From a virus (Duplodnaviria > Heunggongvirae > Uroviricota > Caudoviricetes), in the IMG/VR virus record IMGVR_UViG_3300031555_005503, positions 41,352 to 105,351 of that record: 64,000 bases of DNA, one strand, 5' to 3'. Position 1 is the stretch's first letter; every line of letters starts with the position of its first letter. Position numbers and translations under genes: made by a program. Of this stretch, positions 6,531 to 63,899 are shown one piece after another. The notes beneath the pieces were generated by a model. That model was not told the DNA's origin. It was given only the letters and a program-made list of their open reading frames with translations, and did no database searches.

Positions 6531-6631
6531 AATATCACCTCCATACATCCATATTTTACCAAAATAATGTAAGATTAAATAAAACTACTTAGGGTTTAAA
6601 ATACCCTTAATAGTTACAAAACAACTAAATT

Positions 6632-23265: not shown

Positions 23266-24411
23266 TTACACCATATCGATATTCTCTATCAATTTAGCCT
23301 TTTGGCCATCTGTAACATGAGTATATATATCCATAGTAGTCTTTACTGATGAATGTCCCAGTATTTCTTGTGTAACTTTGGCAGATATATCTCTTTCAAA
23401 ACATCTAGTTGCAAAAGAGTGTCTTAGTGAATGTGCAGATATTCTTTTTATTCTTTGATCTTCAAGTTCCATTTTTCTTAGAACAGTTTTTAATGCGGCA
23501 TTATAACAGCTTGTATTTAACCACCTATTTCTATTTGTTGTAAATAGAAAGTCTTTTGCTAAAGTTCCTGGGTATTTTTCATTTAGCATTTTCTTTATTT
23601 CTATTTGTTGTTTTAATGCTTTCATACAACTTGAATTCATAGGAATTATTCTTTTGCTGGAAGGGGTTTTTGTATTTCCAATTAAAAACTTACCCTTGCC
23701 ATCAAAACATTTAAATTGTAGTGTTTTATTGATATTTATAGTCTTCTTATTGAAATCTATATCATCATATGTTAATGCGAATAATTCTCCTGGCCTCATA
23801 CCAGTATTTAATTGAACTAGAAATGCATTATGGTAAAAACTGTTTTTAGATATTTCTATAAAATTAAGTTGTTCTTCTTTTGTAAAAGCTGTTCTTCTTT
23901 CAAAATCTTTTTCATGTTTCATTATTTTCACTCCTCTGGTTGGGTTCGTTTTAGCATAATTATTTGCTATCGCTTTATTGTACATGTCTGATAAAATTCT
24001 TTTTACTTTATCTTGAGTGCTCCAAGCATAATTATTATCAGCTAGTTTATTAATTAGATTACTAACATCTATTTGAGTTAGTGATGTTAATTTTGTCGTC
24101 CCAAAATCAGGCGATATAAATGATTTATAATGATCCGTATATATTGATTTAGTAGTTTCTCTTGTGTCATGTTTCAATATTGTGATCCATATTTCAAACC
24201 ATTTATCTAAACATAAATCAGATTTTATTCCTAAATTTAAAACTTTATCTTCGTATTCAGCTTTTCTTAGCTTATCTTTCAGATTAACCAATTTTTTATC
24301 ATATATTGATTTTCTCTTGCCAAATCTATTAGTGTATCTCGCACAATATACACCGTCTTTTCTTTGTGATATTCCTTGCCCTAACTCCTTTCCTTTTAAA
24401 TCTTTTCCCAT
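23266..24411 (-). CDS. int: tyrosine site-specific integrase
   Basis: C-terminal catalytic box AHSLRHSFATR...LGHSSVKTTMDIYTHV (R, HxxR, Y). Confidence 0.85.
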   Translation of the reverse strand: MGKDLKGKELGQGISQRKDGVYCARYTNRFGKRKSIYDKKLVNLKDKLRKAEYEDKVLNLGIKSDLCLDKWFEIWITILKHDTRETTKSIYTDHYKSFISPDFGTTKLTSLTQIDVSNLINKLADNNYAWSTQDKVKRILSDMYNKAIANNYAKTNPTRGVKIMKHEKDFERRTAFTKEEQLNFIEISKNSFYHNAFLVQLNTGMRPGELFALTYDDIDFNKKTININKTLQFKCFDGKGKFLIGNTKTPSSKRIIPMNSSCMKALKQQIEIKKMLNEKYPGTLAKDFLFTTNRNRWLNTSCYNAALKTVLRKMELEDQRIKRISAHSLRHSFATRCFERDISAKVTQEILGHSSVKTTMDIYTHVTDGQKAKLIENIDMV

Positions 24412-34410: not shown

Positions 34411-37400
34411 CTATTTCACCTCGCTCCATTGCTTTAATATGGTTTCATATTCATCAATCTGTTCAAATCCACCACCAGCTTTTTTCTTCCATTTCCTTTC
34501 TTTGCTTGCCTCTACTGTTTTAATAACTTGTCCAATTTCTAGCGGATGTCCTTCAAATGTAGCACTCTTAACCTTGACTCTCTCAATTTCACCTGAGTTA
34601 AGTCTGTATAATGTTACTAAGCGATTTCGGAATTTGCTATTCACATCCATAACATAAGCAAAATCAGGAGTAAGTTTAGGAACGGTAATTCCGATATATC
34701 CTAAGTGCTCATTTTCATATTTAATTCTGTCACATATTGAGGTTTTAATATTTTGACTGTTATCAAGCTGCCTAATCATTTCCATTGTATCTTCAATCTT
34801 ATACAACTTCTCAGTTTCTGTATGCTCACACATCATGAGTGCGGCAATTTCTTCAGTTGTTAATTCCTCTTTTTTTAGCTGTTTTCGAGAAGAATACTTA
34901 TTGAAAAGATCAGTTTGATAAAGCAATTGATTTGGATTTCCAAATTCAGAAAAGAAATTTAATTTAATAAGAATTTCAAGTTGTCTAGAATCGACTGATG
35001 TTTCAGTATTAATAACATTAAGCAAATCATAAAAGTCAACAAATTCACGATCTCTTAATTCATATAACTGACGTGATATTTTTTTATTAAGATATTTAAT
35101 AGACTTCATGCCTTTATATACCGATTTGGTTTCTTTACTATAAGCATATTCCGGCAATGAATATCTAAATTTAATTGATTCAATTTTTATCCCTTGTTGC
35201 TTTGCATATTCTGTAATTTTAAGAGTTTTATCTTCTTTATCTTCAAATATGTTAAGCGCAGTAGTGATAAATTCATATGGATAATGATATCTAAGATATC
35301 CACAAATATAACCTATCCAACTATAAGGATCAGAGTGGTTAAGTGAGAAAAGATAATCGCTGGCATCTTCAATAACTTGTAGAAAATCAATAATAATTCG
35401 GTCAGCTTCTTCCTGATCAACACCATATTTATCTTTCATCGTTTTTATGAAGCCGGCTTTAATAAGAGGTATATCCTTTTCAGTTCCAGTCTTCTTAGCA
35501 AAATGACGACGAACAATATCAGCTTGACCCATTGTATAACCACAGAACATATGTAAAAATTGAATGATCTGTTCTTGGAAAACCATAAATCCTAAAGTCG
35601 AAGCCATCATTTCATTTAAAGCTTTATGACCGCAATCATTAAATTCACCTCTAGCCAGTTCTTCTCTATACGATGCTCCCGCCGGTCTAATTGCACCATT
35701 ACCAATTGAAAGAAGATCCATATAAGAAAAGTCGCGATTTTGTGCTCTGATTTTCTTTACGACTTCATCTGATAACAGTTTTTTTAGATATGCTGCAGCA
35801 GATTCTGACTCCCATTGAAAAATACAAGTAGTATTATCACGAATACTTTTAAACACTTCTTCTTCTAATGGTGTGTTATTTGGCGTTAATCGTTCAATGC
35901 CAATCATCTCGCAAGTCTTATTGATAAGACCAATATTATCTAACCCTAAAATATCAAGTTTTACAAAATTTAAAGAATCAATCTCTTTCATATTAAGTTG
36001 TGATATAGGATATTTATTAGTAGATGTTGTAAATGTTCCAAACCAATCTTCAACTGAATATGGTGCTACAACTACGCCTGCCGGATGGTTTCCTACTGAA
36101 ACAATTACATCCTGAACAATATCAACATATTTAAATACTTCAGGATATTCTATTCTTGCTTTATTTTCATCAACCTCAGCAACCCCAATAATCTCCTCGG
36201 CTATATGGATATATTCAGTTGGCTTCTCTTCTTTATACAGACCTCTACATATATCACGTATTGCACCTTTTAATTTAATCGTATTAAACGTGATAATATC
36301 GCAACAATATAACCCTCTTTTCTTATAAAGATAATTCTTAACCACTTCTCTATCTGGTGAATACCAATCGCTATCAACGTCTGCAAGAGAGATTCTTTCT
36401 TGGTTCATAAAACGTTGGAAGTTTAAATTGTGTTTAATACTATCAACTTCTGTTATACCAAACAGATATGCAATAATACTGCCCGAAACAGATCCTCTTG
36501 AATAACCTGGATAAATCCCCTTTTTTCGCATTGCTGCTTTGTAATCTTCCTCAAGAAGCATAAAGTCAATTGCTCCATTATGTTTATAGGTTGCAATTTC
36601 TTCTTTGATACGCTCTAAGTATTCTTGTTTATTTGGAAGTTTATCAATGCCTCGCCATTTAATACCCTCGACTATTTTTTTATGAAAAACTCTTTCAGAG
36701 TCATCATATAGCTTAGGATATTTAGTGCTGGTATCAATTGTGAATTCTTCAACCATTGAAGCCATTACATTAGTATTTTCTATTGCTTGTAAATAAACTT
36801 CAGGCTCAAGAGATTCTTGTTTGCAAAACGCATCAACTAATTCATCATAAGTTTTAAAGGAAAGATCCCATGCATCTTCATTTGCGAAATGAACATTCTT
36901 TCCTCTTTGCAATACTTTTCTAGCTTCTAAATGCTCATCATTGAGTGCATGTGTATCTGTGCCTGCAATTAAAGGGATTTCAAATTGTTTGCTAAGTTCA
37001 TACAATTCTTGATTGTATTTAATTTGTTCAGGCTCCATATGATGTTGAATTTCTAAGAAGCATCTATGTTTATTTTCAATCAGGAATTTAAGAAATTTAT
37101 TTTTAATTCCAGTATGTCCATTATGTAATATTCCGCCCAAACAAGCTGTTGTTATAATAATATTGTCACTTGTATTAACCAGCTCATCTATCGTAATTCT
37201 TGGATTATAATAGAAATGTCCATCTTCTCGATTAAATGATTTACTTGAAAGCATATTAATCTCTTTAAAGCCTTCATAGTTTTTTGCTATTAAAACACAA
37301 TGGTAATTATCTCTAACTTTTTCTGTTATTGAATTAGTAACATAAGCTTCTATTGCATGAATATATTTCATACCAGCCTTTTCAATATCTTGCTTCTTAT

Positions 37401-37560
37401 GCCACCATTCGAATACCGATCCATGTTCACTAAATGCAAGCGCGGTCATACCGCATTCTTTAGCTTTTGCAATATATTGTTTATACTTAGTTACACTATC
37501 AATATTAGTTACGCCAGAAGATAAATCTGAATGAAGATGAAATATTGTATAATTCAACAT
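34411..37560 (-). CDS. dnaE: DNA polymerase III alpha subunit (DnaE-type), PHP domain
   Basis: PHP motif HLHSDLS...AFSEHG. Length 1049 aa. Typical polymerase core. Confidence 0.8.
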   Translation of the reverse strand: MLNYTIFHLHSDLSSGVTNIDSVTKYKQYIAKAKECGMTALAFSEHGSVFEWWHKKQDIEKAGMKYIHAIEAYVTNSITEKVRDNYHCVLIAKNYEGFKEINMLSSKSFNREDGHFYYNPRITIDELVNTSDNIIITTACLGGILHNGHTGIKNKFLKFLIENKHRCFLEIQHHMEPEQIKYNQELYELSKQFEIPLIAGTDTHALNDEHLEARKVLQRGKNVHFANEDAWDLSFKTYDELVDAFCKQESLEPEVYLQAIENTNVMASMVEEFTIDTSTKYPKLYDDSERVFHKKIVEGIKWRGIDKLPNKQEYLERIKEEIATYKHNGAIDFMLLEEDYKAAMRKKGIYPGYSRGSVSGSIIAYLFGITEVDSIKHNLNFQRFMNQERISLADVDSDWYSPDREVVKNYLYKKRGLYCCDIITFNTIKLKGAIRDICRGLYKEEKPTEYIHIAEEIIGVAEVDENKARIEYPEVFKYVDIVQDVIVSVGNHPAGVVVAPYSVEDWFGTFTTSTNKYPISQLNMKEIDSLNFVKLDILGLDNIGLINKTCEMIGIERLTPNNTPLEEEVFKSIRDNTTCIFQWESESAAAYLKKLLSDEVVKKIRAQNRDFSYMDLLSIGNGAIRPAGASYREELARGEFNDCGHKALNEMMASTLGFMVFQEQIIQFLHMFCGYTMGQADIVRRHFAKKTGTEKDIPLIKAGFIKTMKDKYGVDQEEADRIIIDFLQVIEDASDYLFSLNHSDPYSWIGYICGYLRYHYPYEFITTALNIFEDKEDKTLKITEYAKQQGIKIESIKFRYSLPEYAYSKETKSVYKGMKSIKYLNKKISRQLYELRDREFVDFYDLLNVINTETSVDSRQLEILIKLNFFSEFGNPNQLLYQTDLFNKYSSRKQLKKEELTTEEIAALMMCEHTETEKLYKIEDTMEMIRQLDNSQNIKTSICDRIKYENEHLGYIGITVPKLTPDFAYVMDVNSKFRNRLVTLYRLNSGEIERVKVKSATFEGHPLEIGQVIKTVEASKERKWKKKAGGGFEQIDEYETILKQWSEVK

Positions 37561-44210: not shown

Positions 44211-44726
44211 TTATTTTGCACTCTTTCCAACCTCTTTTACTTTTCTTTTTAATTCTTCAAAAGAGATTGGAGTATAATTTGTTCTTTCTACACTTACGCA
44301 GCAACTTCTAATACTTACATCTTTATAAGTTGGATCATTATGAACATGGCCATAAATATTGAAATACGGGCCCATACCAGGCATAAATTTAGGAGCATGA
44401 CTTAAAATATAAAAATCATTCCAAAGAATTGGATATTTAATTATATCTTGAAAACCAGCTTCTAAATAAATTGATTTACTAACCCTATCATGGTTTCCTA
44501 AAATAAGAATCTTGTTACCTTTTAAGGCTCGTCCCCATTTAATAATTTCGTCACGATTTCCTAATGCAAAATCTCCACAAACAAAAACTTTATCATCTTT
44601 ATTCACTACACTATTCCAGTTATCAATTAAAGCTTCATTCATTTCTTTTACATTTACAAAAGGCCGATCACAATATTCAATAATTCGTTCATGACCAAAG
44701 TGCTGATCAGCTGTAAAATAAACCAT
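44211..44726 (-). CDS. metallophosphoesterase (calcineurin-like)
   Basis: DQHFGH, GDFALGNRD and GNHD motifs. Confidence 0.7.
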   Translation of the reverse strand: MVYFTADQHFGHERIIEYCDRPFVNVKEMNEALIDNWNSVVNKDDKVFVCGDFALGNRDEIIKWGRALKGNKILILGNHDRVSKSIYLEAGFQDIIKYPILWNDFYILSHAPKFMPGMGPYFNIYGHVHNDPTYKDVSIRSCCVSVERTNYTPISFEELKRKVKEVGKSAK

Positions 44727-45468: not shown

Positions 45469-45717
45469 TGATCTTCCTATCTATATTCTAAAACAATAAC
45501 CATTGAATTATATATGGATATAACCCTATGCTTCTCCATATAAGATTAAGCTTTTTATATCTAACTAAATAATTAATATCCAGAAAAGTAAATCAATAAC
45601 AATACACATTATCTTACTTGTTTAATAATATATAACATAGTAACTTAATCATTAATAAACAATATCATCTCCTAGCTTATTCTTCATTTTTTTTAGTTGA
45701 TATAGGGATAAGATTAG
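45469..45717 (-). promoter_or_regulatory. AT-rich intergenic region, probable early promoter(s)
   Basis: 249-bp non-coding gap with TATAAT-like elements and an AGGAAG RBS before the downstream gene. Confidence 0.3.
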
Positions 45718-46230
45718 TTAAATATCAATTTCAAACGTCTCGGTCTGATTTACATAATCAATTCCCATCTGAAGTTTGATAATTCTTTGTACAATATCAT
45801 CATAATCACTTTTAGGTAGTGAAACATCATAATTAGCACAAACATATTCTACTAAATTACTTGAATCACCATATCTATTTTGATGTCTTGATTGAGGCAA
45901 TCGTTTTCTCATATTATCAAGGCGGTCTTTCTCCTTATTTAATTGCGCCATTTGTATTAGTGCCATATCTACAGTTATATCTGTATCAGGAAGTTTTGTA
46001 GTGCAATTAAAAAAGTTGATTGCATGTTTGATTTTATAAATTTTTTCATCAATTTCCTGGATCTGTATTCTTGTTTTAACATAGTCATAATCTGGTTTCT
46101 CTTCTACATATCCAGCAACTTTGATATATGTTGATGCTTCATTTTCACATTTTAATATGTAATCTTTATCATCTTGTAATTTACGAACCATCTTATTAGC
46201 TGCTGCGGATGTGACTATTTCTTTTGCCAT
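45718..46230 (-). CDS. hypothetical protein
   Basis: 170-aa ORF. Confidence 0.4.
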   Translation of the reverse strand: MAKEIVTSAAANKMVRKLQDDKDYILKCENEASTYIKVAGYVEEKPDYDYVKTRIQIQEIDEKIYKIKHAINFFNCTTKLPDTDITVDMALIQMAQLNKEKDRLDNMRKRLPQSRHQNRYGDSSNLVEYVCANYDVSLPKSDYDDIVQRIIKLQMGIDYVNQTETFEIDI

Positions 46231-46381
46231 TGTAGTTTCTCCTTCCCATTAATGATCTTACAACTTTCTTTGCGTCTTTATCTCCGCTTGCAGCTTTGGC
46301 CCTCATAATATCACCAATACTAGCTGTGGAAATTTCATACGGTAATTGTGACTTTTTAATCTTTGTTTCTACTACATTCAT
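46196..46381 (-). CDS. hypothetical small protein
   Basis: 61-aa ORF. Confidence 0.3.
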   Translation of the reverse strand: MNVVETKIKKSQLPYEISTASIGDIMRAKAASGDKDAKKVVRSLMGRRNYNGKRNSHIRSS

Positions 46382-46450: not shown

Positions 46451-47383
46451 TTATAACGCTTTATACATTTTACGCAATTTATTTATTCTCATTGGTTCAA
46501 TTATCATACTGTTATAACAATTAAAATACAATTCTTTCCAAGCAGTTGGAGTAAGTTTTTCATATGGGTAATGTAATTTAAAATCATATATTCTACCCAT
46601 AAGATAAACATCATTAGTATTGAAAGCTAATTCTTTTTTCATCTTAGTTGAAATCTTTTTAAGTATTTTAACTTTCATATAATGATCATTATAATCAAAT
46701 CCATCATCTATATATCTATCACTCATTTTATTGCAAATTTGCTGCTTTTTTTTGTTACCTATATACGTTCTTTGAGTATATATTTTTGATAAAAGATCAA
46801 TAAATTCTTTATGAATAGATATAATTTTATCTTCATTCATTATAGCCATATAAGATTTTGTTAATTTTATATTATCTAATTTGATCTGAAAAATCTCTTC
46901 TTGTGAAAAACCTTGAAATAGCAACATTAAGTATGCGGCTGATAATTCGTCAGTTGTAACTCCCATATCATTTTTCTGATTTAAATATTTATCTATCTGC
47001 ATTTTCAAATCAGCAGGAGATGAAAATAAATATGTTTTACTATATCTTTCAAAAGTTTCTGCTATTAATTTTCTATCATTTTCAAAATATCTTACATCTT
47101 CATTGATTAGATTTTCTACCAATGCCCATCTCTTATATGTGTTTACTCTACCCATTTTAGTCTTAAGAGAGTTTATACATGACACTGTAGTATTTTCCAT
47201 TATATATTTAGCAATGATATCTAATGGCAAATTATATATATCCTCATCATGTTCTATTTCTAGGCTTTCCACTTGAGAAAATAGTGTGTGATAATTCTGT
47301 ATTGCTGATTCTGATGATAAATTTTCTATAAATTGCTTTTTTACCACTTCATTATACATGTTTTCACCGCTTTCTTTACACAT
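46451..47383 (-). CDS. hypothetical protein
   Basis: 310-aa ORF immediately downstream of the MazF-like gene. Confidence 0.4.
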   Translation of the reverse strand: MCKESGENMYNEVVKKQFIENLSSESAIQNYHTLFSQVESLEIEHDEDIYNLPLDIIAKYIMENTTVSCINSLKTKMGRVNTYKRWALVENLINEDVRYFENDRKLIAETFERYSKTYLFSSPADLKMQIDKYLNQKNDMGVTTDELSAAYLMLLFQGFSQEEIFQIKLDNIKLTKSYMAIMNEDKIISIHKEFIDLLSKIYTQRTYIGNKKKQQICNKMSDRYIDDGFDYNDHYMKVKILKKISTKMKKELAFNTNDVYLMGRIYDFKLHYPYEKLTPTAWKELYFNCYNSMIIEPMRINKLRKMYKAL

Positions 47384-47432
47384 TACTAATCATATTAAAT
47401 TTTATATGTACAAAAAGCAGTTGTCAAACAAT

Positions 47433-47840
47433 TTATGAAACGGCTATTTTTTCGTGTATATCAGTTAAGCATTCTATACTTATAAACTGAATCATCGGTG
47501 AATTAATTATAGATGCTATTGAAATCTTTTCCATATATGCATGAGGCATAATTCCAATAAATCCTAAAATATCTGATTTAGATACTGGTCTAGCGCCTTC
47601 GCATTGAGCGATACTATCTTTTGATAAACCCGCTACGTTTGCAGGAATTTCTACATGTGTAGGTAATTTAGCCTTTTTCTTTCTACTAGTTAATGGAACC
47701 ACCTGAATTGTAGGGCTAAATCTATTCCCTTTATTATTTTGAATAATAACAGCCGGTCTTACACCATTTTGAATATGATCGCCATCACTGTACAAACGAA
47801 CCCATATTACATCTCCAATCTTCAAATAATCTTTTTTCAT
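47433..47840 (-). CDS. MazF/PemK (EndoA-like) family endoribonuclease toxin
   Basis: [40 protein letters not shown] parallels the B. subtilis EndoA [40 protein letters not shown]. Confidence 0.85.
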   Translation of the reverse strand: [135 protein letters not shown]

Positions 47841-47867
47841 CTTACAATCCCCTTTAATTATTAATTT

Positions 47868-47905
47868 AAAATTGATAATATCTTCCCTTTATTGATACTA
47901 TTATA
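47868..47905 (-). promoter_or_regulatory. sigma-A type promoter with extended -10 (TGTTATAAT) driving the mazF-like gene
   Basis: The minus-strand read is AAGCTTTTGTATGTTATAATAGTATC. It sits ~50 nt upstream of the RBS AAAGGGGATTGTAAG ATG. Confidence 0.45.
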
Positions 47906-47946
47906 ACATACAAAAGCTTAAAAAAAGAGGAAAAGTCTAAATTTTT

Positions 47947-48261
47947 TTATTTTTTTTTACAAACAAATATCTTATTTTTTGTGCCAGTAAACAAAGTTAG
48001 CTTATCTCTAGAATATTTTAATGGAGTTATATTATAATCTAAAGATGGATTTATCATACAAACTGCACTTCCAGGATCATCTTTATTGCTTAATATAATA
48101 AAATTCGTAATTGGATCAATTTCAATCTTATCATAATTATAATTAACAAAAAACAGTAATTCCCCTTTTTCATTACGTTTTTCTTCGCAATATGTTAGCA
48201 TACTATATTTACTCAAATCATTAAGCAATTTACTTTTCATAACATCCTCCAAAGTATGCAT
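47947..48261 (-). CDS. hypothetical protein
   Basis: 104-aa ORF. Confidence 0.35.
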   Translation of the reverse strand: MHTLEDVMKSKLLNDLSKYSMLTYCEEKRNEKGELLFFVNYNYDKIEIDPITNFIILSNKDDPGSAVCMINPSLDYNITPLKYSRDKLTLFTGTKNKIFVCKKK

Positions 48262-48355
48262 TGTTTTAACATATCCTTAATACGCTTGAACATAAGGGGT
48301 CTTGATAAAATTATAGTACGAACATTTGTTCTTGTCAATTGGTAATATATTCCTC

Positions 48356-51161: not shown

Positions 51162-51307
51162 TCCGCACCGCCTTTCAAAGCATCAGCTATCGTAAACAAT
51201 ATGCATTGTTCTTTTTCTCTGTCCCACCATGCACACGAAACGGATTTACATATTGGAATAGGTCGACCATATTGAAAAGGGCAAAGATTAGTTTTATCAA
51301 ATTTCAT
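51158..51307 (-). CDS. small Cys-rich protein (49 aa)
   Basis: MKFDKTNLCPFQYGRPIPICKSVSCAWW...ADALKGGAE. ATGA-coupled at both ends. Confidence 0.3.
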   Translation of the reverse strand: MKFDKTNLCPFQYGRPIPICKSVSCAWWDREKEQCILFTIADALKGGAE

Positions 51308-51624
51308 GCTTCACCGCCTTTCACGATCTCGATAGCATCATTTATCTGAACAAAGCTACTTACTCTTTTTACACCAGAGTTCATCATGACCTCTCCTGAT
51401 TTTGCCGCATCCACCAACCGCTTCTCGATCTCGTTCATCGGCTTTCGTGTGTTCCATGCTTCGATGGCTTTTAATTTTGCATCTTCCATAGTTGCTGAAC
51501 TAAATTCAAGCGTTCTTACACCGCACGTTTTACATCTTACATAGGCTTCGTGTTTAAAGAATGCAATTTTATGTAGTGCCGCTTCCCCACCGCAGAACGG
51601 ACACGGCTTTAACCTATTACTCAT
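51304..51624 (-). CDS. lar: Lar-family restriction alleviation protein
   Basis: KPCPFCGGEA...CKTCG...AIEAWNTR matches the Lar family signature. Confidence 0.65.
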   Translation of the reverse strand: MSNRLKPCPFCGGEAALHKIAFFKHEAYVRCKTCGVRTLEFSSATMEDAKLKAIEAWNTRKPMNEIEKRLVDAAKSGEVMMNSGVKRVSSFVQINDAIEIVKGGEA

Positions 51625-53581: not shown

Positions 53582-54067
53582 TTAAACCTCCATTTGCAGA
53601 ATACGTTTAGCGGTTTTAATGTGCTTTTCCTCCAAACCTTTTCTTTCAGATGTTTGAAGTAAATGTGATGAACATGGGCGAATCCATTTTCCATCTATAT
53701 CATCTATAACTACATATCCATCAACTTCCTCATGATCATCAAGATACGCTTTAATTTCATCTCCTCGACGCCTCATAAATCTATCAAATATTGGAGTCTT
53801 TCCATATAACTCAATACCGAATTCTCCTAATTTATTACGAAGCTCAATAAAATCTTTAGCAAATTCAGTTTTCTTCATACCAACATCAAGATGTTTCCAA
53901 CCCATTCGCCAAGTTGAAGAAAGAACCACTTTTGCATCGGTTTGGTCAATAAGTTGTTTGAGAATTTTTATATTTTTTTCTTCAACAAATATTGATCCAG
54001 TAGATGTCAATTCTTTTGTATAATAAGTATTAAGAACGCCATCGATATCAAGAAAAATTATCTTCAT
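53582..54067 (-). CDS. HAD-superfamily phosphatase
   Basis: Motif I FLDIDGVLN. Later VVIDDIDG. Confidence 0.55.
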   Translation of the reverse strand: MKIIFLDIDGVLNTYYTKELTSTGSIFVEEKNIKILKQLIDQTDAKVVLSSTWRMGWKHLDVGMKKTEFAKDFIELRNKLGEFGIELYGKTPIFDRFMRRRGDEIKAYLDDHEEVDGYVVIDDIDGKWIRPCSSHLLQTSERKGLEEKHIKTAKRILQMEV

Positions 54068-55585: not shown

Positions 55586-56716
55586 TTACTTTCTATACCT
55601 AAATTTTGGCATTGGCAATAATTTAAATAGATTCTTCTTATGTAATTCATCTATTCTTTCTTTTACTTCAGGATCATCACAAATACCTTCCCTAATGTAT
55701 TTATCTAATACTTTATATGTAAAACCTAAATTGTCTTCATCAGTTTTCCCACTAAGACCATCTGCAGGTGTCTTTTCAATAAATTCTTTAGGAAGTCCAA
55801 GAGAATATCCTAATGTCTTAACCTCTTGTACGGTCAAATTTGATAATGGGCTAAAGTCGCCGGCCATATCGCCGTATCTTGTGGAATATCCAACCCAGTC
55901 TTCAGACAGGTTGCATGTATTGGCAACTCTGCCATTCATACTTTGAGAAACTCCATAAAGAACAGCCATCCTAAGTCTTGGCGGCAAATTAATAATCGTT
56001 TGTTCGCTAAGACGATCACAACAATCATCAATTTGAGTAATAGCATTATCAAACATTCGACTAATATCTATCGTACAATAATTAATTCCTAAGTGATTAC
56101 ATAAATTGTAGGAAACATCGATGTCGCTTTGTTTACCGTTAGGCATCAGTACGCCAAAAACTCTTTCCTTGCCAAGAGCTTCAACACAGAGAGCCGCAAC
56201 TACCGAACTGTCTTTGCCTCCAGAAATACCTACTATTGCATTGCATCCTTTACCGTTTTCTTCAAACCAGTCTCTGATCCACTGAACACAATCGTTTTTA
56301 ATTGGTTCAATTTCTTTAATATGTTCTTCGGCTTCAATCTCATCAATTAATTCGCATAGCATATCATATACAAGTGGTAAACCACCTCTATCATCAATAT
56401 AGACATTAGCATAAGTCTTTCTACCTTTAACAGGTACTGAACTATCGCAATTAATTCCTTCATATTTAATGTTATGTTCATTAAGATAAGCCTGAATTTT
56501 AGGATATTCGCTTTCTCCATTACCTGTTAATATAATTACTTCAGATCTACTTTCCCATCTATGAAGAAGTTCAATGATATTATTAAATGTCTTTCCTGTG
56601 CCATGGAAATCATATAACGTATCATCAAAATCCACACAAAATATTAATTTACCATGCTGAAGATATTCATCTTTTAATCTTTTATAGCAATTTTTTACTT
56701 CTAAATACCAATCCAT
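55586..56716 (-). CDS. nadE: NAD+ synthetase (NadE, PP-loop) fused to an N-terminal HAD-like domain
   Basis: C-terminal NAIVGISGGKDSSVVAALCVEALG, the NadE PP-loop. N-terminal ~130 aa carry HAD motif I FCVDFDDTL. Confidence 0.65.
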   Translation of the reverse strand: MDWYLEVKNCYKRLKDEYLQHGKLIFCVDFDDTLYDFHGTGKTFNNIIELLHRWESRSEVIILTGNGESEYPKIQAYLNEHNIKYEGINCDSSVPVKGRKTYANVYIDDRGGLPLVYDMLCELIDEIEAEEHIKEIEPIKNDCVQWIRDWFEENGKGCNAIVGISGGKDSSVVAALCVEALGKERVFGVLMPNGKQSDIDVSYNLCNHLGINYCTIDISRMFDNAITQIDDCCDRLSEQTIINLPPRLRMAVLYGVSQSMNGRVANTCNLSEDWVGYSTRYGDMAGDFSPLSNLTVQEVKTLGYSLGLPKEFIEKTPADGLSGKTDEDNLGFTYKVLDKYIREGICDDPEVKERIDELHKKNLFKLLPMPKFRYRK

Positions 56717-58182
56717 TAGAATTCTCCTCTGTGTAAAATATCTCTAATTTCAGCTAATGTATAATTTTTTAATAATACTCCATCTTTAAATACTGGTTGC
56801 AGTAAATTTCCTTCTGGAATAGTAGAGCTAGTATATTCGTCTTTATACTTTAACCCTCCGCTTTCTTTATACACATAGCATAATCCCTTCTGAGACTTCT
56901 TAAATCCGCCTTCTTTTGGATTTTTGAAAATAGGATATTCTTTACCATCTACTTCTGCATAACATGCTTTAATACAAGAACTAAATGTATCTCTAGTAAA
57001 CGGCTTTAATTCCCCATCTTCTTCAATACAATGCATTGAGAAAGAACCTACTCCAAGTGCCACATTACTTGCAGCAAATCCATTTTGCATCAGAATTTCA
57101 TATATTCGCTCTGCTCTTTGAACTGTAATTGAATCACCGTAAATAGCTTTTACATGTGGATCCAGTACTTTATAGCCTTTGCTATTTAAAGTGCCACCAA
57201 ACTGTTCCCACAGCTTAAATACTGTCTGAGTTACTACTTCTACACAGTCACCAGAATCACCTCTCATAAGCATACATCCATTATGAGCCATGATTTCATC
57301 ATGAATCTTAGGCAAAATATTATCAATTACGTTCCAGTAATCATAGCTATCAAGTACACATGAGAAACTTGTGTTAGGATATAATTCAGTCAATAACTTT
57401 CTCAGGAAAGTTTCTTCATCTCCATCTATTGCATAATTGCTACACATTACAAAATGCTCACTACTTACAGCTCCAAATGCAACCTCTTCTTTTTCACAAT
57501 CACAATTATACATTTTTTCAAGATACGGAATTACTGGCACTGTTGCAGTGTTTACAAATGATAGACACCATCCGGATCCTGCTTTGAGTGCAGCATCAAG
57601 ACCCATATCACCTCTAAAGTCGAAGCTACCCAAAGCTTTTCTTCTTGGAGTATCTTCATCGCACGTCATATCATAATATTTATTTACAACATCACGATAC
57701 GTCTTACCTACTGTTGCAGTGATCATTGGATACCAAAGCTCTGCACTAATTAAAGATTCAAGTGCTTGCGGCAACCAAGCAAAATCATCATGAGTATTTG
57801 TAATACCAAACATAGGTACCTTCATTGGAACCATTGTTCCTTCTGGAAGCGCTGTAATTTCAATTGGCAAATACCCAAGATGATGCAGTTTTATAATTTT
57901 TTCGATATCATATACACCTTCACCAAGCGTATTATCAAGAACTCTTTTATATTCAGCGATTACTTCATCTTCTGGCCTTTCAAAAAAATTATCTCTAAAG
58001 TGATCAATAAGATAAGTTTTGCAAAATGCTTGTAATCCAAACATTACAACTTTATCCCATCTATTCACTCTACTCATTCGCGGCGTAAAGTAGGATACAG
58101 ATTTTGTCATACCCGGATTAAGCATTTCTGCATGAACTGCTTTGTAAAAATCACATAATAATAATGAATTCATTTCGTGCAT
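56716..58182 (-). CDS. nicotinamide phosphoribosyltransferase family (NadV/Nampt-like; candidate Namat of NARP1)
   Basis: N-terminal LLLCDFYKAVH. Length 488 aa. Nampt-like core. Start overlaps the stop of the Prs-like gene. Confidence 0.7.
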   Translation of the reverse strand: MHEMNSLLLCDFYKAVHAEMLNPGMTKSVSYFTPRMSRVNRWDKVVMFGLQAFCKTYLIDHFRDNFFERPEDEVIAEYKRVLDNTLGEGVYDIEKIIKLHHLGYLPIEITALPEGTMVPMKVPMFGITNTHDDFAWLPQALESLISAELWYPMITATVGKTYRDVVNKYYDMTCDEDTPRRKALGSFDFRGDMGLDAALKAGSGWCLSFVNTATVPVIPYLEKMYNCDCEKEEVAFGAVSSEHFVMCSNYAIDGDEETFLRKLLTELYPNTSFSCVLDSYDYWNVIDNILPKIHDEIMAHNGCMLMRGDSGDCVEVVTQTVFKLWEQFGGTLNSKGYKVLDPHVKAIYGDSITVQRAERIYEILMQNGFAASNVALGVGSFSMHCIEEDGELKPFTRDTFSSCIKACYAEVDGKEYPIFKNPKEGGFKKSQKGLCYVYKESGGLKYKDEYTSSTIPEGNLLQPVFKDGVLLKNYTLAEIRDILHRGEF

Positions 58183-58979
58183 TACAATACCTCCTCTATA
58201 CGCATTGTATTAATCTTTTCATGTGATGAATGAAAAAGACTATCTGTGGTCCAAACACTTTTTATAAGATCTCCTTTTAATAGCTCACCTTGATGAATTG
58301 TATCTTCGCAATGAGTTACATATAGATGAACATCTTTTGCCCCAAGCTCTTTAAGCTTTTTTGCTGCAAAATAAAAAGTTCCTCCACGGGAACAAATATC
58401 ATCTATTATAAGAATGTTTTTATTTTTTATTAACTCAGCATCTCCGGCAATATTCAGCCCAAGAATTTTTCCTGTATCCCATTGCCTTTCCTTTACCCCA
58501 AAAGCATATGGTAATTTTGCCATACCACTATAACGTTTCATTGCACCTTCATCTGGAAAAAATAATGAATCTACATAAACTTGATCTAATACTTTGTTTA
58601 TAAATAGCTCTGGAGTTTTCACACATATATTATCAATTAACGCCTCGCTTACAGAAGAATGTGGATCTAATACTGATACATAATCAAAATTGAGGCTATT
58701 AATAATATTTGCAAAAAATTTTAAAGTGAAAACTTCATCATCATGTTTTACTCTATCCATGCGAGCGTTTGGAATGTACGGCATTTTCAATTGGATATTT
58801 GAACAACGAAGTTTATCTAAATGTTTCTTTACGTAGATAAGCGTTATTAATTCTTCTTCACGTTCATATAACCATGTTATAGTAGCATCAGTTCTGAAAA
58901 TCGTTGTTGGCATTTTTATATTTTGTGTACCATCGGGAAAACGATCTACGATTACTTGTGCTCCATCTACTTTTATCAT
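58182..58979 (-). CDS. ribose-phosphate pyrophosphokinase family (Prs-like; candidate ADP-ribose pyrophosphokinase Adps)
   Basis: PRPP-binding motif NILIIDDICSRGGTFYFAAKKL. Confidence 0.65.
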   Translation of the reverse strand: MIKVDGAQVIVDRFPDGTQNIKMPTTIFRTDATITWLYEREEELITLIYVKKHLDKLRCSNIQLKMPYIPNARMDRVKHDDEVFTLKFFANIINSLNFDYVSVLDPHSSVSEALIDNICVKTPELFINKVLDQVYVDSLFFPDEGAMKRYSGMAKLPYAFGVKERQWDTGKILGLNIAGDAELIKNKNILIIDDICSRGGTFYFAAKKLKELGAKDVHLYVTHCEDTIHQGELLKGDLIKSVWTTDSLFHSSHEKINTMRIEEVL

Positions 58980-58983
58980 ATTT

Positions 58984-59589
58984 TTACCTCTTAATTTCTA
59001 TCTGACACATTTCCATAGCCTTAAGTGCATTTTCATGACTATCCGGAGTAACGCCAGCGCAACATGTCGCATCAACGCTAATTTTTGCTTCCGGCATAAA
59101 TGCTTTTAATAACATTGCATTAGATATAACGCAAATATCGGTACAAAGGCCAACAAGTTCAATCTCTACTCCACTACCATCTTTATTATCAATTACTGCC
59201 TGTATCACCTTTGCAAGATCTACTGAGCCAAATGTAGGCTTATTAATTGTATTGTTTTCGCCAATATAAGGTACAATTTCTGGATCAATAATTATAGTTT
59301 TTTTATACATCCAAGTACTTCTAATTGCTTTCTGTATATACCATCCTTCATTTACTTTTCCTGGCTCATAGATACAATGTGGCACCGGAAGATTTTTACC
59401 TTCCTGAATTTCCATATAATTAGGCCCATGTGTATCTTTTGTAAAAAGAATTAATGTTTCTTCGTTTGCTGCTTCAATTTTCTTGATTACATTAGGCACA
59501 ATTGCTTTAGCCTCTTCTGTTCCGAGAGCGCCGTCGATAAAATCATTCTGCATATCTACTACGATTAAAAATTTATTTAAATTATCCAT
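58984..59589 (-). CDS. nicotinamidase/isochorismatase-family hydrolase (PncA-like)
   Basis: LIVVDMQNDFIDGALG, K...TKDTH and the catalytic Cys region LVGLCTDICV. Confidence 0.6.
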   Translation of the reverse strand: MDNLNKFLIVVDMQNDFIDGALGTEEAKAIVPNVIKKIEAANEETLILFTKDTHGPNYMEIQEGKNLPVPHCIYEPGKVNEGWYIQKAIRSTWMYKKTIIIDPEIVPYIGENNTINKPTFGSVDLAKVIQAVIDNKDGSGVEIELVGLCTDICVISNAMLLKAFMPEAKISVDATCCAGVTPDSHENALKAMEMCQIEIKR

Positions 59590-60984: not shown

Positions 60985-61254
60985 TTAAGTAAGAAAATTC
61001 ATTAAATCGTCTTGACTAATTTTAATTTCAAATTCATCAGCCAATCCATCGATCATATGTTCATACCAATGCCAGTCTCTATTATCTTCTTTCATCCTAT
61101 AAACTCCACCATAACAATTATCACTACTAGCATTTATAATAGTCATCACTTGATCGCCATACTTATCCATAAGTCCAGAAGAATTTCTACCAGCTGCATA
61201 TCGCATACGTTCACGAGAAATTATTTTGACACGATCACCTACGTTAAATTTCAT
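60985..61254 (-). CDS. small-protein paralog family member (C-terminal ISQDDLMNFLT)
   Basis: Start refined to MKFNVGDRVKI, after AAAAGGAAAAGGTG. Confidence 0.45.
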   Translation of the reverse strand: MKFNVGDRVKIISRERMRYAAGRNSSGLMDKYGDQVMTIINASSDNCYGGVYRMKEDNRDWHWYEHMIDGLADEFEIKISQDDLMNFLT

Positions 61255-61369
61255 TTTTACACCTTTTCCTTTTATAGCCAAATTAAAAATCTTAATGAAA
61301 TAAATAATGTTAACACAACATATGTTAATAAAAAAAATGGCTAAAACAGTTGAATTAATGTTCGCCATT

Positions 61370-61945
61370 TTACGCCTCTATTAAAGCTAGCAATTCATTA
61401 CCATAATTTGATCGGTATGAGCTAAATAATCTCTCAATTATTTCTCTTTTTACATCTTCTTTTGTTGTACAGCTCATAAATTTCATATCAGCTAAACACT
61501 CTTTTAAGGTTGAATATTTTTCAATAGCTTTAACTTTTCCACTATATTGACCTCTTAAATAATCAAGTGCCTGATCATAATCAGTATCTTTGCTAACAAT
61601 ATAAATAAATTCAGTATTTTTATCAGTTAAAGCCGTTGCTACATCACATATAATTTTAAAATCTGTCGCATTAGATCCTACGTTTGAAACTATTTCACGT
61701 ATAACAGCTTTATTATTCTTTAATTTATTATTCATTTTATTACTATTTAGCATAGTTGCATGAGTAGAATCGGCATAAAAATTCACCTGAGTTGAATTAT
61801 CTAAAATAATCTCATTACCGAGATCATCATAGCTTGTATTATCAAGATCTATAAATATGTATTTAGTTATTGCAGGCAGATCTGCAATAAATTCATCCTT
61901 TTTAATTTTTTCAAATACATTATAAATCTCTTCTCGAACATTCAT
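61370..61945 (-). CDS. hypothetical protein
   Basis: 191-aa ORF. Confidence 0.4.
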   Translation of the reverse strand: MNVREEIYNVFEKIKKDEFIADLPAITKYIFIDLDNTSYDDLGNEIILDNSTQVNFYADSTHATMLNSNKMNNKLKNNKAVIREIVSNVGSNATDFKIICDVATALTDKNTEFIYIVSKDTDYDQALDYLRGQYSGKVKAIEKYSTLKECLADMKFMSCTTKEDVKREIIERLFSSYRSNYGNELLALIEA

Positions 61946-62653: not shown

Positions 62654-62947
62654 TTATACATCAAGAAATTCTAATAAATCGTCTTGACTAATATTTACCT
62701 CACCGTCCGTCCAATCAATTGTATCGTAGCCAAATATAAATCCAGGTTCTTTGCCAATATTATCAGCAGGCACTCCTACAAAACCCATACTATTAGGGCC
62801 ACCTATTGCTCTAATATAGACATAAGAACCTCTGAGATTATAACATTTATCATCCACTATGTACGTCGAATACATTTCACCAAGTTGTATGTCATCTCTA
62901 ATACGAATTATATTTCCTTCCTTAAAATCAGGATGTTTAAATTTCAT
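62654..62947 (-). CDS. small-protein paralog family member (C-terminal ISQDDLLEFLDV)
   Basis: Shares N-terminal and C-terminal similarity with the 60985 ORF. Confidence 0.45.
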   Translation of the reverse strand: MKFKHPDFKEGNIIRIRDDIQLGEMYSTYIVDDKCYNLRGSYVYIRAIGGPNSMGFVGVPADNIGKEPGFIFGYDTIDWTDGEVNISQDDLLEFLDV

Positions 62948-62951
62948 ATTA

Positions 62952-63254
62952 TCACACTCCTAAAAAATTGAATAAATCACATATATCTATGGCAAGATCA
63001 GGGCTTAAAATGTTATATTCTGATAAATCAAACATCTCTGTGGTCCAAAACCAACCTCCTGCTTCTTTAACATAAAATTTCCCATTTAGACCTATCGCTG
63101 TTATAGTTACACGTTTTCCAGCAAACTTTACCATTTGAGGAGTCGCAAAATCAGCGGCAGTGTTATAATTTTCATATGTTTTTCCTTGCAAATCTGATCT
63201 TACTAACACTTTATCGCCCACTTCAGGCACAAGTAGACCTTTAATATATTTCAT
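62952..63254 (-). CDS. small-protein paralog family member (C-terminal ICDLFNFLGV)
   Basis: VGDKVLVRSD at the N-terminus and a DLxxFL C-terminus. Confidence 0.4.
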   Translation of the reverse strand: MKYIKGLLVPEVGDKVLVRSDLQGKTYENYNTAADFATPQMVKFAGKRVTITAIGLNGKFYVKEAGGWFWTTEMFDLSEYNILSPDLAIDICDLFNFLGV

Positions 63255-63497: not shown

Positions 63498-63899
63498 TTA
63501 TATATTTAAAAAATTCATTAAACTGTTTTGATATATTACCATTTTAGGCACTTTTTCAAATTCAATATCTGTAAATAGATAGTCTGTAATCTCAGTCCCA
63601 TTGTCTAAACTACTACTTCCATCGCAGTGAATATGCAGTATTCCATCACAATCTTCTGCACAATAAATAGAAACCCACTCATTAAATTCAAACTCAAATA
63701 CTTCTCTTTCTTTAACCCTTTTTAAATCGTCTAAGAGCGTGGAATTTGAATATACTGTTATATCTAAAAAACTTTCTAAATATAACATTGTTTGCAGAAA
63801 CTCTTCTCTTGTCTCACATATTATTCCAATGGCTTCTGGGTTTGTCCAATGTAATAAAAATCTATTAATATCAAATTTAATTTTTTCTCCGACTGCCAT
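63498..63899 (-). CDS. hypothetical protein, distant paralog-family member (C-terminal LMNFLNI)
   Basis: 133-aa ORF. Confidence 0.4.
   Translation of the reverse strand: MAVGEKIKFDINRFLLHWTNPEAIGIICETREEFLQTMLYLESFLDITVYSNSTLLDDLKRVKEREVFEFEFNEWVSIYCAEDCDGILHIHCDGSSSLDNGTEITDYLFTDIEFEKVPKMVIYQNSLMNFLNI

Follow-up and report, generated by a model that had tools for sequence, protein, structure and literature searches.

The window, a 64-kb stretch of phage DNA analysed here as a whole, contains a mazF gene which lies between a small upstream gene (here called 'up') and a downstream gene for a repressor of the SroF/MrpR type, all three in the same orientation (Table 1). The cassette starts with a promoter containing a LexA box (P_up) followed by 'up', continues with an extended −10 promoter (P_mazF) and mazF, and ends with a third promoter (P_sroF) and the repressor gene, with the three genes and their spacers together covering about 1.9 kb. 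This placement of mazF between 'up' and an SroF-like repressor gene was found in 13 divergent phage lineages, with MazF identities of 34–73% and repressor identities of 20–36%. An earlier sequence-only reading had described mazF as an orphan toxin gene, which does not hold in the sense of an isolated gene, as mazF is the middle gene of this conserved cassette. Among the loci examined, linkage to an SroF-like gene was confined to the clade of ~135-aa MazF proteins and the distant L096. The phage is temperate, since the window encodes a bona fide integrase and a prophage remnant was found integrated next to host genes. This remnant has kept the LexA box, 'up' and mazF at 100% identity, while the repressor gene and 20+ kb are deleted. 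The window also contains counter-defence-type genes, namely a NAD salvage cluster and Lar.

Table 1. Features of the mazF cassette and the integrase gene in the 64-kb window
Feature	Position	Strand	Details
Tn916-type tyrosine integrase	23266-24411	minus	PF00589 (1.4e-30), with PF14659 and PF02920
sroF/mrpR-like gene, 302 aa	46451-47359	minus	start is M9 of a 310-aa ORF, placed by homology and ribosome-binding site
Predicted fold-back hairpin of read-through transcripts	47360-47430	minus	UACAUA between the arms
P_sroF (TTGACA, 17 nt, TAAAAT)	47399-47427	minus	11/12 consensus match
TACATA (UACAUA)	47405-47410	minus	sole copy in the mazF-repressor unit; 5' of the predicted P_sroF transcription start
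mazF	47433-47840	minus	135-aa ORF
Gap before mazF	47841-47946		106 bp; carries extended −10 and ribosome-binding site
P_mazF extended −10, TGTTATAAT	47900-47908	minus	read from sequence
'up', 97-aa protein	47947-48240	minus	start is M8 of a 104-aa ORF, after a GGAGGA ribosome-binding site
P_up (TTGACA, 17 nt, TATAAT)	48310-48338	minus	perfect sigma-A consensus, 12/12 match
Firmicute LexA (SOS/Cheo) box, GAACAAATGTTC	48320-48331	minus	within the P_up spacer, between −35 and −10

Megablast and tblastn with the repressor, the latter at the protein level, gave no match in phage records, word-indexed homologue searches with 'up' and the repressor returned only the queries themselves, representative genomes contained no member of the 135-aa MazF clade, and a scan of IMG/VR for the promoter pattern recovered a single contig, which was already known.

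The mazF product is a genuine member of the MazF/PemK endoribonuclease family and looks catalytically competent. Over residues 9–107 it matched the Pfam family PemK_toxin (PF02452) with E 4.7e-23 and 81.9 bits, above the curated cut-off of 23.1, and it also matched PHROG 1936 ('MazF-like growth inhibitor', E 1e-26), and aligned over its full length with the solved B. subtilis EndoA structures 4MDX and 1NE8 (E 5e-18), in agreement with its earlier assignment to the MazF/EndoA family. The near-identity of its core to EndoA noted at the time applies to the quoted core strings (GVRP and 20 further letters), which are identical, whereas overall identity to EndoA-type proteins is 41–43%. The activity of MazF depends on an Arg and a Thr as the two essential catalytic residues (PMC4041440); these correspond to R28 and T51 of the phage protein (R25 and T48 in EndoA), which did not vary across 53 sequences, and the mutated active site that would mark a pseudo-toxin was therefore not seen. 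Much of the RNA-groove sequence is also shared with EndoA. The AlphaFold2 (AF2) model (pLDDT 91.9) has the order of strands and helices expected for a MazF/CcdB-type fold, to which we assign the protein from both alignment and model, and an additional C-terminal helix (residues 122–134), made up of the ~16–20 residues by which the protein exceeds B. subtilis EndoA. The 135-aa protein represents a distinct ~135-aa phage subfamily of MazF/PemK endoribonucleases. The PHROG 1936 genes of cultured phages belong to the same Pfam and PHROG families and are likewise mostly annotated without an antitoxin, but they are <43% identical to the phage MazF and none falls within the ~135-aa clade; a functional study of these genes was not found in the literature.

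The 106-bp gap upstream of mazF contains no ORF, and carries the extended −10 promoter and the ribosome-binding site (GGGGA, 8 nt upstream of the ATG) that had been reported earlier. The promoter motif TGNTATAAT occurs 7 times in the window compared to 9.6 expected at 32.5% G+C, and its presence alone is thus not above chance, but P_mazF is credible because TGnTATAAT has kept its position in relatives though the flanking spacer has diverged. The motif is positionally invariant in the window, L007, L012 and L015, is also present at P_mazF in L097, L101, L119 and L120, and is represented by TGTATAAT, lacking the n, in L099 and L121. The gap contained no tandem repeat (only a T-run) and gave no Rfam match, and its predicted RNA folding was not significant (z +0.49), which gives no support to a type III (ToxIN-like) or other RNA antitoxin in this gap, as might be expected from the earlier suggestion that the antitoxin could be RNA-based.

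Neither the scanned ORFs of the window nor its six reading frames yielded a MazE-type antitoxin. The Pfam scans covered most of the called ORFs, with every ORF <690 aa included and the four largest structural ORFs outside the set, and phmmer searches of the six frames with MazE queries gave a best E of 3.2. The proposed absence of an upstream antitoxin hence stands for MazE-type proteins, and no conventional antitoxin emerged upstream on re-examination, but the conserved 97-aa gene 'up' lies directly upstream of mazF. A type II mazEF operon, with an adjacent and co-transcribed AbrB- or RHH-type MazE, was not detected; the upstream gene differs in fold and is separated from mazF by the promoter-bearing gap of 106 nt. 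This differs from B. subtilis EndoA, which is paired with MazE (EndoAI) in a type II system, whereas the phage mazF has no such partner or operon structure and is encoded within a phage regulatory region. Overall, the identification of a MazF protein lacking a MazE was confirmed, and its interpretation as an orphan toxin was only partly right.

The promoter of 'up' is present at the same position in relatives. Its LexA box is one of only two GAACN4GTTC sites in the 64 kb (0.29 expected), and a LexA box was detected in the equivalent promoter in 12/13 lineages, where it is usually the sole box of the 7–16-kb locus. The predicted model of the 'up' protein is all-beta and PH-like, consisting of eight strands and one short helix, and its pI is 8.4 in this phage and ranges from 4.5 to 9.2 across the family. 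Comparison with the PDB by sequence and fold gave no hit, in a search which perhaps did not cover the Sar chain of 9RGL, and 'up' did not resemble AbrB or RHH antitoxins by either sequence or fold. In SPbeta-family phages, Sar is a LexA-controlled antirepressor of ~100 aa, encoded one ORF away from sroF (bioRxiv 10.1101/2025.11.27.690993). The 'up' protein is similarly small, its gene is preceded by a LexA-box promoter and it is encoded one gene (mazF) away from the repressor; however, it is all-beta and, in this phage, non-acidic, whereas Sar forms an intertwined three-helix alpha/beta dimer that acts as an acidic DNA mimic, and the two proteins are not homologous. We consider 'up' a candidate SOS-controlled antirepressor and/or neutraliser of MazF.

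The latter activity would also be expected if 'up' and mazF formed an SOS-controlled toxin-antitoxin pair, with 'up' as a non-MazE antitoxin binding MazF in an addiction or abortive-infection module, and the adjacent repressor gene being incidental. In line with this, 'up' is located directly 5' of mazF in the same orientation with no intervening terminator, its family is tiny and limited to this cassette context, and the remnant has retained exactly the LexA box, 'up' and mazF after loss of the repressor, as is typical of addictive modules. A gap of ~70–120 nt with a separate, conserved toxin promoter is atypical of type II systems, however, and 'up' would be LexA-repressed while the toxin has its own promoter. 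The 'up' protein also evolves as fast as the repressor (mean identity 29% and 27%, respectively, versus 58% for MazF), which together with its variable pI and its lack of resemblance to AbrB and RHH antitoxins does not fit a toxin-binding partner well, and L083 and L084 keep mazF linked to the repressor gene although the protein encoded 5' of mazF shows no detectable relation to 'up'. We regard such a pair as rather unlikely.

The product of the downstream gene matched PF22822, the N-terminal core-binding domain of MrpR (E 7.5e-10), and within its family this domain was found in 6/6 members tested, and PF00589 in 0/6. The family profile matched YopR (8BJ6, 5e-11), MrpR (8A0A, 6e-10) and SroF (9RD5, 2e-8) over their full length as well as 8BJV, with matches spanning positions 1–284, and did not match true recombinases, while the family alignment contains no invariant Arg or His. 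By these profile matches, the protein is classified as a catalytically degenerate homologue, with the tyrosine-recombinase fold, of the SPbeta/phi3T master repressor YopR/MrpR/SroF. A master repressor of this family is expected to have several long operator boxes scattered across the phage genome. A crude search of the intergenic regions of this AT-rich genome gave no convincing 16-mer repeat that could represent a repeated operator, and the conserved P_sroF promoter block did not recur elsewhere in the window. The 310-aa ORF in which this gene starts had been put forward as a possible non-canonical antitoxin, which would make mazF the first gene of a reversed, toxin-first pair. Strict linkage in 13 lineages is compatible with such an arrangement, as is the spacing of only 6 nt between mazF and the repressor gene in L084, which resembles translational coupling. 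Nevertheless, the family is one of DNA-binding repressors, the two genes have separate promoters, the hairpin described below would uncouple repressor translation from mazF transcripts, and the remnant retains an intact and identical mazF in the absence of the SroF-like gene, so that the repressor is not needed to tolerate MazF. An antitoxin role of the SroF-like protein is therefore highly improbable.

In the spacer between mazF and the repressor gene, the P_sroF block is invariant in the alignment, its TTGACN-N11-TACATA-TAAAAT architecture was found in 11/13 lineages, and the spacer contained exactly one UACAUA in 12/13 lineages, with 0.68 expected in total. As there is no terminator, we infer that transcripts from the upstream promoters read through into the repressor gene. 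On such transcripts the spacer is predicted to fold back into a hairpin (MFE −20.1 kcal/mol, z −4.36, with 0/200 shuffles as stable), with its 5' arm formed by the P_sroF spacer and its 3' arm by the ribosome-binding region of the repressor gene, whereas the repressor leader beginning 3' of the −10 element is unstructured. MAFFT with RNAalifold detected no structure in the aligned spacers, where loop lengths vary, and because of this variation we used folding per lineage and an alignment-free duplex test of the arms. The relatives showed the same fold with different arm sequences, and cognate arms paired more strongly than non-cognate arms (−10.5 versus −5.1 kcal/mol, 0/20,000 permutations as good). 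This pattern is that of a covarying hairpin, which is predicted to mask the repressor ribosome-binding site on read-through transcripts.

The hexamer UACAUA is the recognition sequence common to the MazF proteins of B. subtilis, Listeria and S. aureus (bioRxiv 10.64898/2026.08.06.743204), and we assumed it to be the cleavage motif of the 42%-identical phage protein as well, an assumption backed by the depletion pattern. The coding sequences of the 13 repressor genes contained no UACAUA in 12,117 nt, compared to 9.6 expected (P 7e-5, codon-shuffle P 0.0003), while 10 copies were present on the antisense strand. UACAUA ranked first of 1303 hexamers for depletion in the repressor genes, and the depletion was replicated in four held-out lineages; it is significant only across lineages and not for the window locus alone. 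Avoidance of the motif in these genes suggests that the phage MazF has an EndoA-like specificity and gives indirect support to the predicted sequence-specific, ribosome-independent RNA cleavage, although MazF of the host could also be the selective agent. An apparent enrichment of UACAUA in 'up' (9 versus 1.25–3.2 expected in the first nine lineages) was rejected as a general feature, with 0 copies in the four held-out lineages. Phage replication and early genes were not depleted of UACAUA (18 versus 6.7 and 12 versus 6.0 expected by codon shuffling), and the excess in these lytic genes is probably compositional, given similar antisense counts.

The lack of UACAUA depletion in lytic genes bears on the role in lytic host shut-off or counter-defence proposed in the sequence-only reading. 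In such a role, SOS induction would lead to read-through from P_up into mazF and to degradation of host or defence mRNAs. This read-through is conceivable, as no terminator separates 'up' from mazF. Large phages that infect Lactobacillus, Psychrobacillus and other hosts often carry MazF-like genes, and the presence of the NAD salvage cluster and Lar in the window would be in keeping with it. An active MazF would, however, harm the phage's own lytic transcripts, and the linkage to the repressor gene, strict in this MazF clade alone, also argues against host shut-off, which is quite improbable. Superinfection exclusion by the prophage is somewhat better accommodated: MazF made in the lysogen would degrade transcripts of incoming phages, while the phage's own repressor message, from which UACAUA is missing, would be immune and lysogeny be maintained. 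Host MazEF restricts the antitoxin-less phages SPbeta and phi3T without cell killing (bioRxiv 10.1101/2023.04.27.537455), and expression in lysogens is expected from the separate mazF promoter and from the predicted co-transcription with the repressor gene in L084. Against this, PADLOC gave no hit, and both the conserved site in the hairpin opposing the ribosome-binding site and the fixed position of mazF between the SOS gene and the repressor gene are left unexplained. We consider defence unlikely as the primary function, although it is compatible with a lysogeny circuit rather than exclusive of it. The context argues more strongly for lysogeny control than for host shut-off or counter-defence.

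A close parallel to the cassette is found in SPbeta and phi3T. Work on these phages has shown that host MazF favours lysogeny, through what was termed 'an uncharacterized mechanism' (PMC10769878). The repressor-operon product SroA/phi3T_93 frees MazF while AimX and YosL inhibit it (PMC10769878; bioRxiv 10.1101/2023.04.27.537455), and the mRNA of the sro operon, including the repressor message, is spared by MazF (bioRxiv 10.1101/2025.11.27.690993), to which the UACAUA-free repressor message of the cassette is a counterpart. Both systems have a homologous YopR/MrpR/SroF master repressor, a LexA-box gene for a protein of ~100 aa one ORF from the repressor, and a MazF genetically tied to the repressor unit, and both are carried by large temperate phages that encode a DnaE-type polymerase. 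An SPbeta YorH domain is present in a relative. One difference is that the cassette phage encodes MazF itself, whereas SPbeta and phi3T instead encode MazE-binding activators (SroA and SroB) of the host MazF. In addition, the six-gene sroA-F (yopMNOPQR) operon is absent from the cassette, and AimR, AimP and AimX were not found in Pfam scans of the 64-kb window, with ~46 kb of the parent contig located beyond it. The gene order and promoters of the cassette are read from the sequence. We estimate a probability of about 0.5 for the reading that mazF, with its fixed place between the other two genes, serves there in lysis-lysogeny control in a family of large SPbeta-related temperate Bacillota phages, which would represent a variant of the MazF-dependent lysogeny circuit.

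For this lysogeny circuit we infer the following mechanism, in which the phage would push towards lysogeny with a MazF of its own, whereas SPbeta and phi3T rely on that of the host. MazF would cut UACAUA-containing RNAs, and the repressor message from P_sroF, lacking the motif, would be immune. Transcripts reading through from P_up or P_mazF would have the repressor ribosome-binding site locked in the fold-back hairpin, and cleavage by MazF at the single UACAUA between the arms would detach the mazF cistron, making the system self-limiting, and at the same time free the repressor ribosome-binding site. This wiring could hold MazF in check, with possible additional restraint by SOS-induced 'up', the position of which copies that of Sar in phi3T. 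We offer this full scheme only tentatively, with MazF as the antitoxin-free, self-limiting RNase arm of an SroF-type switch which may degrade UACAUA-containing messages of phage and host and spare and activate the repressor, and 'up', as a new kind of antirepressor and/or MazF inhibitor, reversing this upon DNA damage. The cassette would then be an independent evolutionary solution, with a phage-carried MazF placed beside an SPbeta/phi3T-type repressor, and would provide a concrete mechanism for the promotion of lysogeny by MazF, resting on two specific features, a motif-free repressor message and one conserved motif in a hairpin masking the ribosome-binding site. If true, MazF-type RNases would be regulatory parts of phage switches, beyond their roles as toxins or in defence, the persistence of a toxin gene without an antitoxin would be explained, and a new family of small SOS-controlled proteins would join the repertoire of antirepressors and antitoxins.

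A fold-back hairpin with an embedded UACAUA is not mentioned in the SPbeta/phi3T literature examined. The transposase genes of IS10 and IS50 have their promoter inside a hairpin, so that in transcripts from outside the upstream arm sequesters the ribosome-binding site, whereas transcripts from their own promoter lack this arm. In the phage hairpin, by contrast, the protected gene is that of a repressor, and the arms enclose a conserved nuclease recognition motif, which points to regulated release more than to insulation alone. In the predicted fold of the window's own hairpin, UACAUA forms part of a weak, base-paired inner stem, which speaks against release by cleavage as MazF needs single-stranded RNA, and the TACATA of the spacer could instead be a promoter or operator element at the DNA level. 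Two lineages depart from the common spacer arrangement, as L084 has neither the hairpin nor the UACAUA site, and L083 has its own terminator-like hairpin.

The mazF product (135 aa) matched Pfam PemK_toxin (E 4.7e-23, 81.9 bits, cut-off 23.1) and PHROG 1936 'MazF-like growth inhibitor', and aligned end to end with the solved B. subtilis EndoA structures 4MDX and 1NE8 (E 5e-18). A sequence-only reading of this DNA had described a near-identical core to EndoA, and the motifs it quoted are indeed identical, but identity to EndoA-type MazF over the whole protein is just 41–43%. Residues R28 and T51 align with R25 and T48, the two essential catalytic residues of EndoA (PMC4041440), and are invariant across 53 aligned sequences, which argues against a pseudo-toxin with mutated catalytic residues. 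An AlphaFold model (pLDDT 91.9) displayed the usual fold with an extra C-terminal helix (residues 122–134), a modelled feature that marks a subfamily of ~135-aa MazF proteins; protein searches recovered this subfamily as a tight clade (49–100% identity) apart from the canonical 116-aa MazF, with no member in representative bacterial genomes.

When the ORFs called in the 64-kb window were scanned with Pfam, the four largest structural ones aside, antitoxin families (MazE/AbrB, RHH or others) were not detected, and phmmer searches of all six frames with MazE from B. subtilis, E. coli and S. aureus gave a best E-value of 3.2, in line with the sequence-only reading, which saw no MazE-like small ORF upstream. 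Neither an ORF nor a repeat occurs in the 106-bp gap upstream of mazF, and the gap gave no Rfam match and no significant RNA fold, which leaves an RNA-based antitoxin in this gap unsupported. It does contain the good ribosome-binding site and extended −10 promoter previously proposed; the latter is supported by positional conservation and not by frequency, since nonamers like TGTTATAAT are by themselves not above chance in the AT-rich window (7 found, 9.6 expected), while the element keeps its position in relatives despite the diverged surrounding spacer. These searches showed a MazF gene that is predicted to be intact and has no accompanying MazE.

Loci with members of the ~135-aa clade were compared for 13 lineages, on phage-like contigs of 90–270 kb, with between-lineage MazF identities of 34–73% in the first nine. 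A small ORF (91–154 aa) precedes mazF in all 13 lineages, and a ~300-aa gene lies within 6–100 nt of its 3′ end (6 nt in locus L084). The cassette of three genes and three predicted promoters is conserved. The term 'orphan' thus holds for the absence of a MazE-type partner, but not for a gene that is part of a cassette kept in 13 lineages. The phage is temperate, given that the window encodes a true Tn916-type integrase and a related remnant (L011) is integrated next to host genes.

Cassette features and other genes of the window
Feature	Position	Strand	Remarks
Beta-CASP/RMMBL (RNase J-like) protein	379–999
Tn916-type integrase	23266–24411
DnaE-type polymerase	34411–37560
Metallophosphoesterase	44211–44726
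170-aa ORF	45718–46230	minus	weak DUF6847/DIP1984 match
61-aa ORF	46196–46381	minus	overlaps 170-aa ORF
SroF/MrpR-like repressor gene	46451–47359	minus
P_sroF	47427–47399	minus	TTGACA-17-TAAAAT; repressor gene's own promoter
mazF	47433–47840	minus	PemK_toxin, PHROG 1936
P_mazF	47900–47908	minus	extended −10, TGTTATAAT
up	47947–48240	minus	directly upstream of mazF
P_up	48338–48310	minus	perfect TTGACA-17-TATAAT; precedes up
Lar restriction-alleviation protein	51304–51624
HAD_SAK_2 domain protein	53582–54067
NAD-salvage/NAD-synthesis cluster	55586–59589	minus
Small paralogous proteins	60985–61368, 62654–62947, 62952–63254, 63498–63899	minus
PIN7/NYN-domain putative RNase	61370–61945

Homology and a ribosome-binding site place the start of the downstream gene at M9 of its ORF, and therefore define its listed extent. 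Its product contains the MrpR N-terminal core-binding domain PF22822 (E 7.5e-10), which is present in all six of the family members profiled, with the integrase catalytic domain in none of them and no invariant Arg or His in the family alignment. The six-member profile matched only SPbeta YopR (8BJ6/8BJV, 5e-11), MrpR (8A0A, 6e-10) and phi3T SroF (9RD5, 2e-8), each over the full length. On these grounds the gene encodes an SPbeta-family master repressor homologue; repressors of this kind keep the recombinase fold but not its catalytic activity (PMC10516654; bioRxiv 10.1101/2025.11.27.690993). A crude search of the AT-rich window found no operator for it. The 61-aa and 170-aa ORFs lie directly 3′ of the repressor gene, and a similar pair (47–79 aa and 165–170 aa) is kept there in most lineages checked, so the pair may belong to the same regulatory unit.

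A Firmicute LexA box, GAACAAATGTTC, is located in the spacer of P_up, with 2 such sites in the 64-kb window against 0.29 expected, and the promoter-plus-box arrangement recurs in 12 of the 13 lineages, generally as the sole box of the locus; this showed a putative LexA box in P_up. The 'up' protein had no match in Pfam, PHROGs, PADLOC, NCBIfam or PDB, its family comprises ~15 clusters among 1.84 billion representative proteins, and its model (pLDDT 93.8) has eight strands and one short helix. Three lineages carry a second sequence type with remote homology (hhalign 91.7%), and the proteins in this slot of loci L083 and L084 have no detectable relationship to 'up'. The phi3T antirepressor Sar is ~100 aa, LexA-controlled and encoded one ORF from sroF (bioRxiv 10.1101/2025.11.27.690993); 'up' matches Sar in logic and position, but differs in fold.

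Lysogeny of phi3T and SPbeta is promoted by host MazF activity, with the repressor-operon proteins phi3T_93/SroA and SroB releasing MazF from MazE, and AimX and YosL inhibiting MazF and so permitting lysis (PMC10769878; bioRxiv 10.1101/2023.04.27.537455; 10.64898/2026.08.06.743204). The repressor operon mRNA is reportedly spared by MazF (10.1101/2025.11.27.690993), and the U^ACAUA cleavage motif is common to MazF of B. subtilis, Listeria and S. aureus (10.64898/2026.08.06.743204). Avoidance of TACATA was tested on the first nine lineages, whose repressor genes contained none (6.6 expected from flanking DNA), and then on four held-out lineages fetched afterwards, again with none (3.0 expected). 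Combined, the 12,117 nt of repressor genes from 13 lineages had no TACATA against 9.6 expected (P 7e-5; codon-shuffle P 0.0003), with 10 copies on the antisense strand, and in an unbiased scan TACATA was the most depleted of 1303 hexamers. The mazF genes had one copy (4.3 expected, not significant), and the lytic genes of the window displayed no depletion. The selective agent behind this avoidance could also be host MazF.

In the mazF–repressor spacer, exactly one TACATA is present in 12 of the 13 lineages, with 0.68 expected in total. In 11 lineages it lies in a fixed frame, TTGACN-N11 (or N9)-TACATA-(−10 element), so that transcription from the repressor's own promoter is predicted to start downstream of it; the motif might instead function at the DNA level and not as an RNA site. 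Folding of the spacer RNA gave a long fold-back hairpin in nearly every lineage, with the promoter spacer as 5′ arm, the ribosome-binding region of the repressor gene as 3′ arm, and UACAUA between the arms; the prediction for the window's own hairpin has the motif base-paired within a weak inner stem. Hairpin z-scores were −1.0 to −5.6 in 10 of the 11 lineages with the frame (≤ −2.6 in six); the window hairpin has an MFE of −20.1 kcal/mol (z −4.36, 0/200 shuffles folding as well), and the leader that transcription from P_sroF would produce, beginning after its −10 element, is predicted to be unstructured. Arm sequences vary by lineage with complementarity kept: mean pairing was −10.5 kcal/mol for cognate and −5.1 for non-cognate arms (0/20,000 permutations as extreme), and the cognate partner ranked first of 11 in seven lineages. 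The hairpin is thus a predicted covarying structure, and should silence repressor translation on transcripts that start at P_up or P_mazF and read through; a search for terminators between the cassette genes was negative. L084 has neither hairpin nor UACAUA site. In L083 (8135–8230), a strong GC-rich hairpin, GAGGGGTATAATATTATACCCCTC, follows mazF, and the lone UACAUA lies immediately beside the ribosome-binding site of the repressor gene, CTACATAGGAGG, within a small anti-RBS hairpin, a divergent layout which may serve the same logic.

The cryptic prophage remnant L011 (ERZ27232968 k141_301356, positions 5537–7130) is 99.8–100% identical to full phages as far as 8 nt beyond the mazF stop codon, with LexA box, up and mazF 100% identical to those of intact phages; it is joined there to the C-terminal half of an integrase, followed by host genes (GH3, GGDEF-HD, Mur ligase), whose proteins were found on >100 contigs. 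Given this junction, mazF persists intact without the repressor gene, which is therefore not required as the antitoxin that the sequence-only reading had suggested for the downstream 310-aa ORF. The 'up' protein is another candidate antitoxin, as it always adjoins mazF and is retained in L011, but it is LexA-repressed, a gap with a promoter lies between it and mazF, its rate of evolution matches that of the repressor (mean identity 29% for 'up', 27% for the repressor, 58% for MazF) and its fold is not antitoxin-like. An antirepressor role for 'up' is rated more likely, and both could apply.

We classed the cassette as a variant of the SPbeta-type MazF-dependent lysogeny circuit. The phage MazF would cut UACAUA, and the repressor message from its own promoter would be immune. 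On read-through transcripts the repressor would be translationally silent until a cut between the hairpin arms, which would also separate the mazF cistron from its 3′ part and so be self-limiting. MazF would therefore tip the decision towards lysogeny and help to maintain it, the role that host MazF has in phi3T, with the SOS-induced 'up' protein countering the repressor, MazF or both. Phage MazF-like genes are already catalogued (PHROG 1936); our literature search found no functional study of them, and no description of a MazF clade strictly tied to an SroF-type repressor and a LexA-controlled gene, of a motif-free repressor gene beside mazF, or of an anti-RBS hairpin with an embedded MazF motif.

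A different, 118-aa MazF-like gene was seen in IMG/VR contigs L090–L094 (~6774–8680), with an integrase-like gene just upstream and a TTGACA-N-GAACN4GTTC (LexA-box) promoter ~370 nt downstream, and in locus L088 a 356-aa recombinase-like gene is followed by one for a 208-aa MazF whose C-terminus is greatly extended; the association of MazF with neighbouring recombinase-fold genes may be more widespread. The cassette has genes of RNA-repair type around it, namely the HAD_SAK_2 domain protein and metallophosphoesterase of the window and, in relatives (L007, L013, L015, L097, L101, L121), an RNA ligase (PF09414) a few genes 3′ of the repressor, seemingly absent from the equivalent place in the window (a 249-bp gap, 45469–45717). 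Since MazF cleavage leaves 5′-OH ends (PMC6562991), a link of the cassette to RNA repair is conceivable. The Lar, PIN7/NYN and Beta-CASP/RMMBL genes add RNA-metabolism and anti-restriction functions. The NAD cluster (NAD synthase, NAMPT/NAPRTase, PRPP-synthetase-like phosphoribosyltransferase, isochorismatase/nicotinamidase) resembles phage NAD-reconstitution pathways countering NAD-depleting defences, and relatives carry the same gene set near the cassette. The small paralogous proteins share the C-terminal motif ISQDDL[ML][NE]FL, or ...LMNFLNI, which in the DNA appears as a family of 40-nt direct repeats (60991, 62663 and 63507). For the DnaE-type polymerase, identity is 52% to the enzyme of Clostridioides phage pCD1602_4 (132 kb; CP069348.1) and ~46% to the enzymes of large Bacillus phages, and one relative has a Phage_SPbeta_YorH domain. 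The group appears to be a distant, uncultured offshoot of the large temperate SPbeta-like phages.
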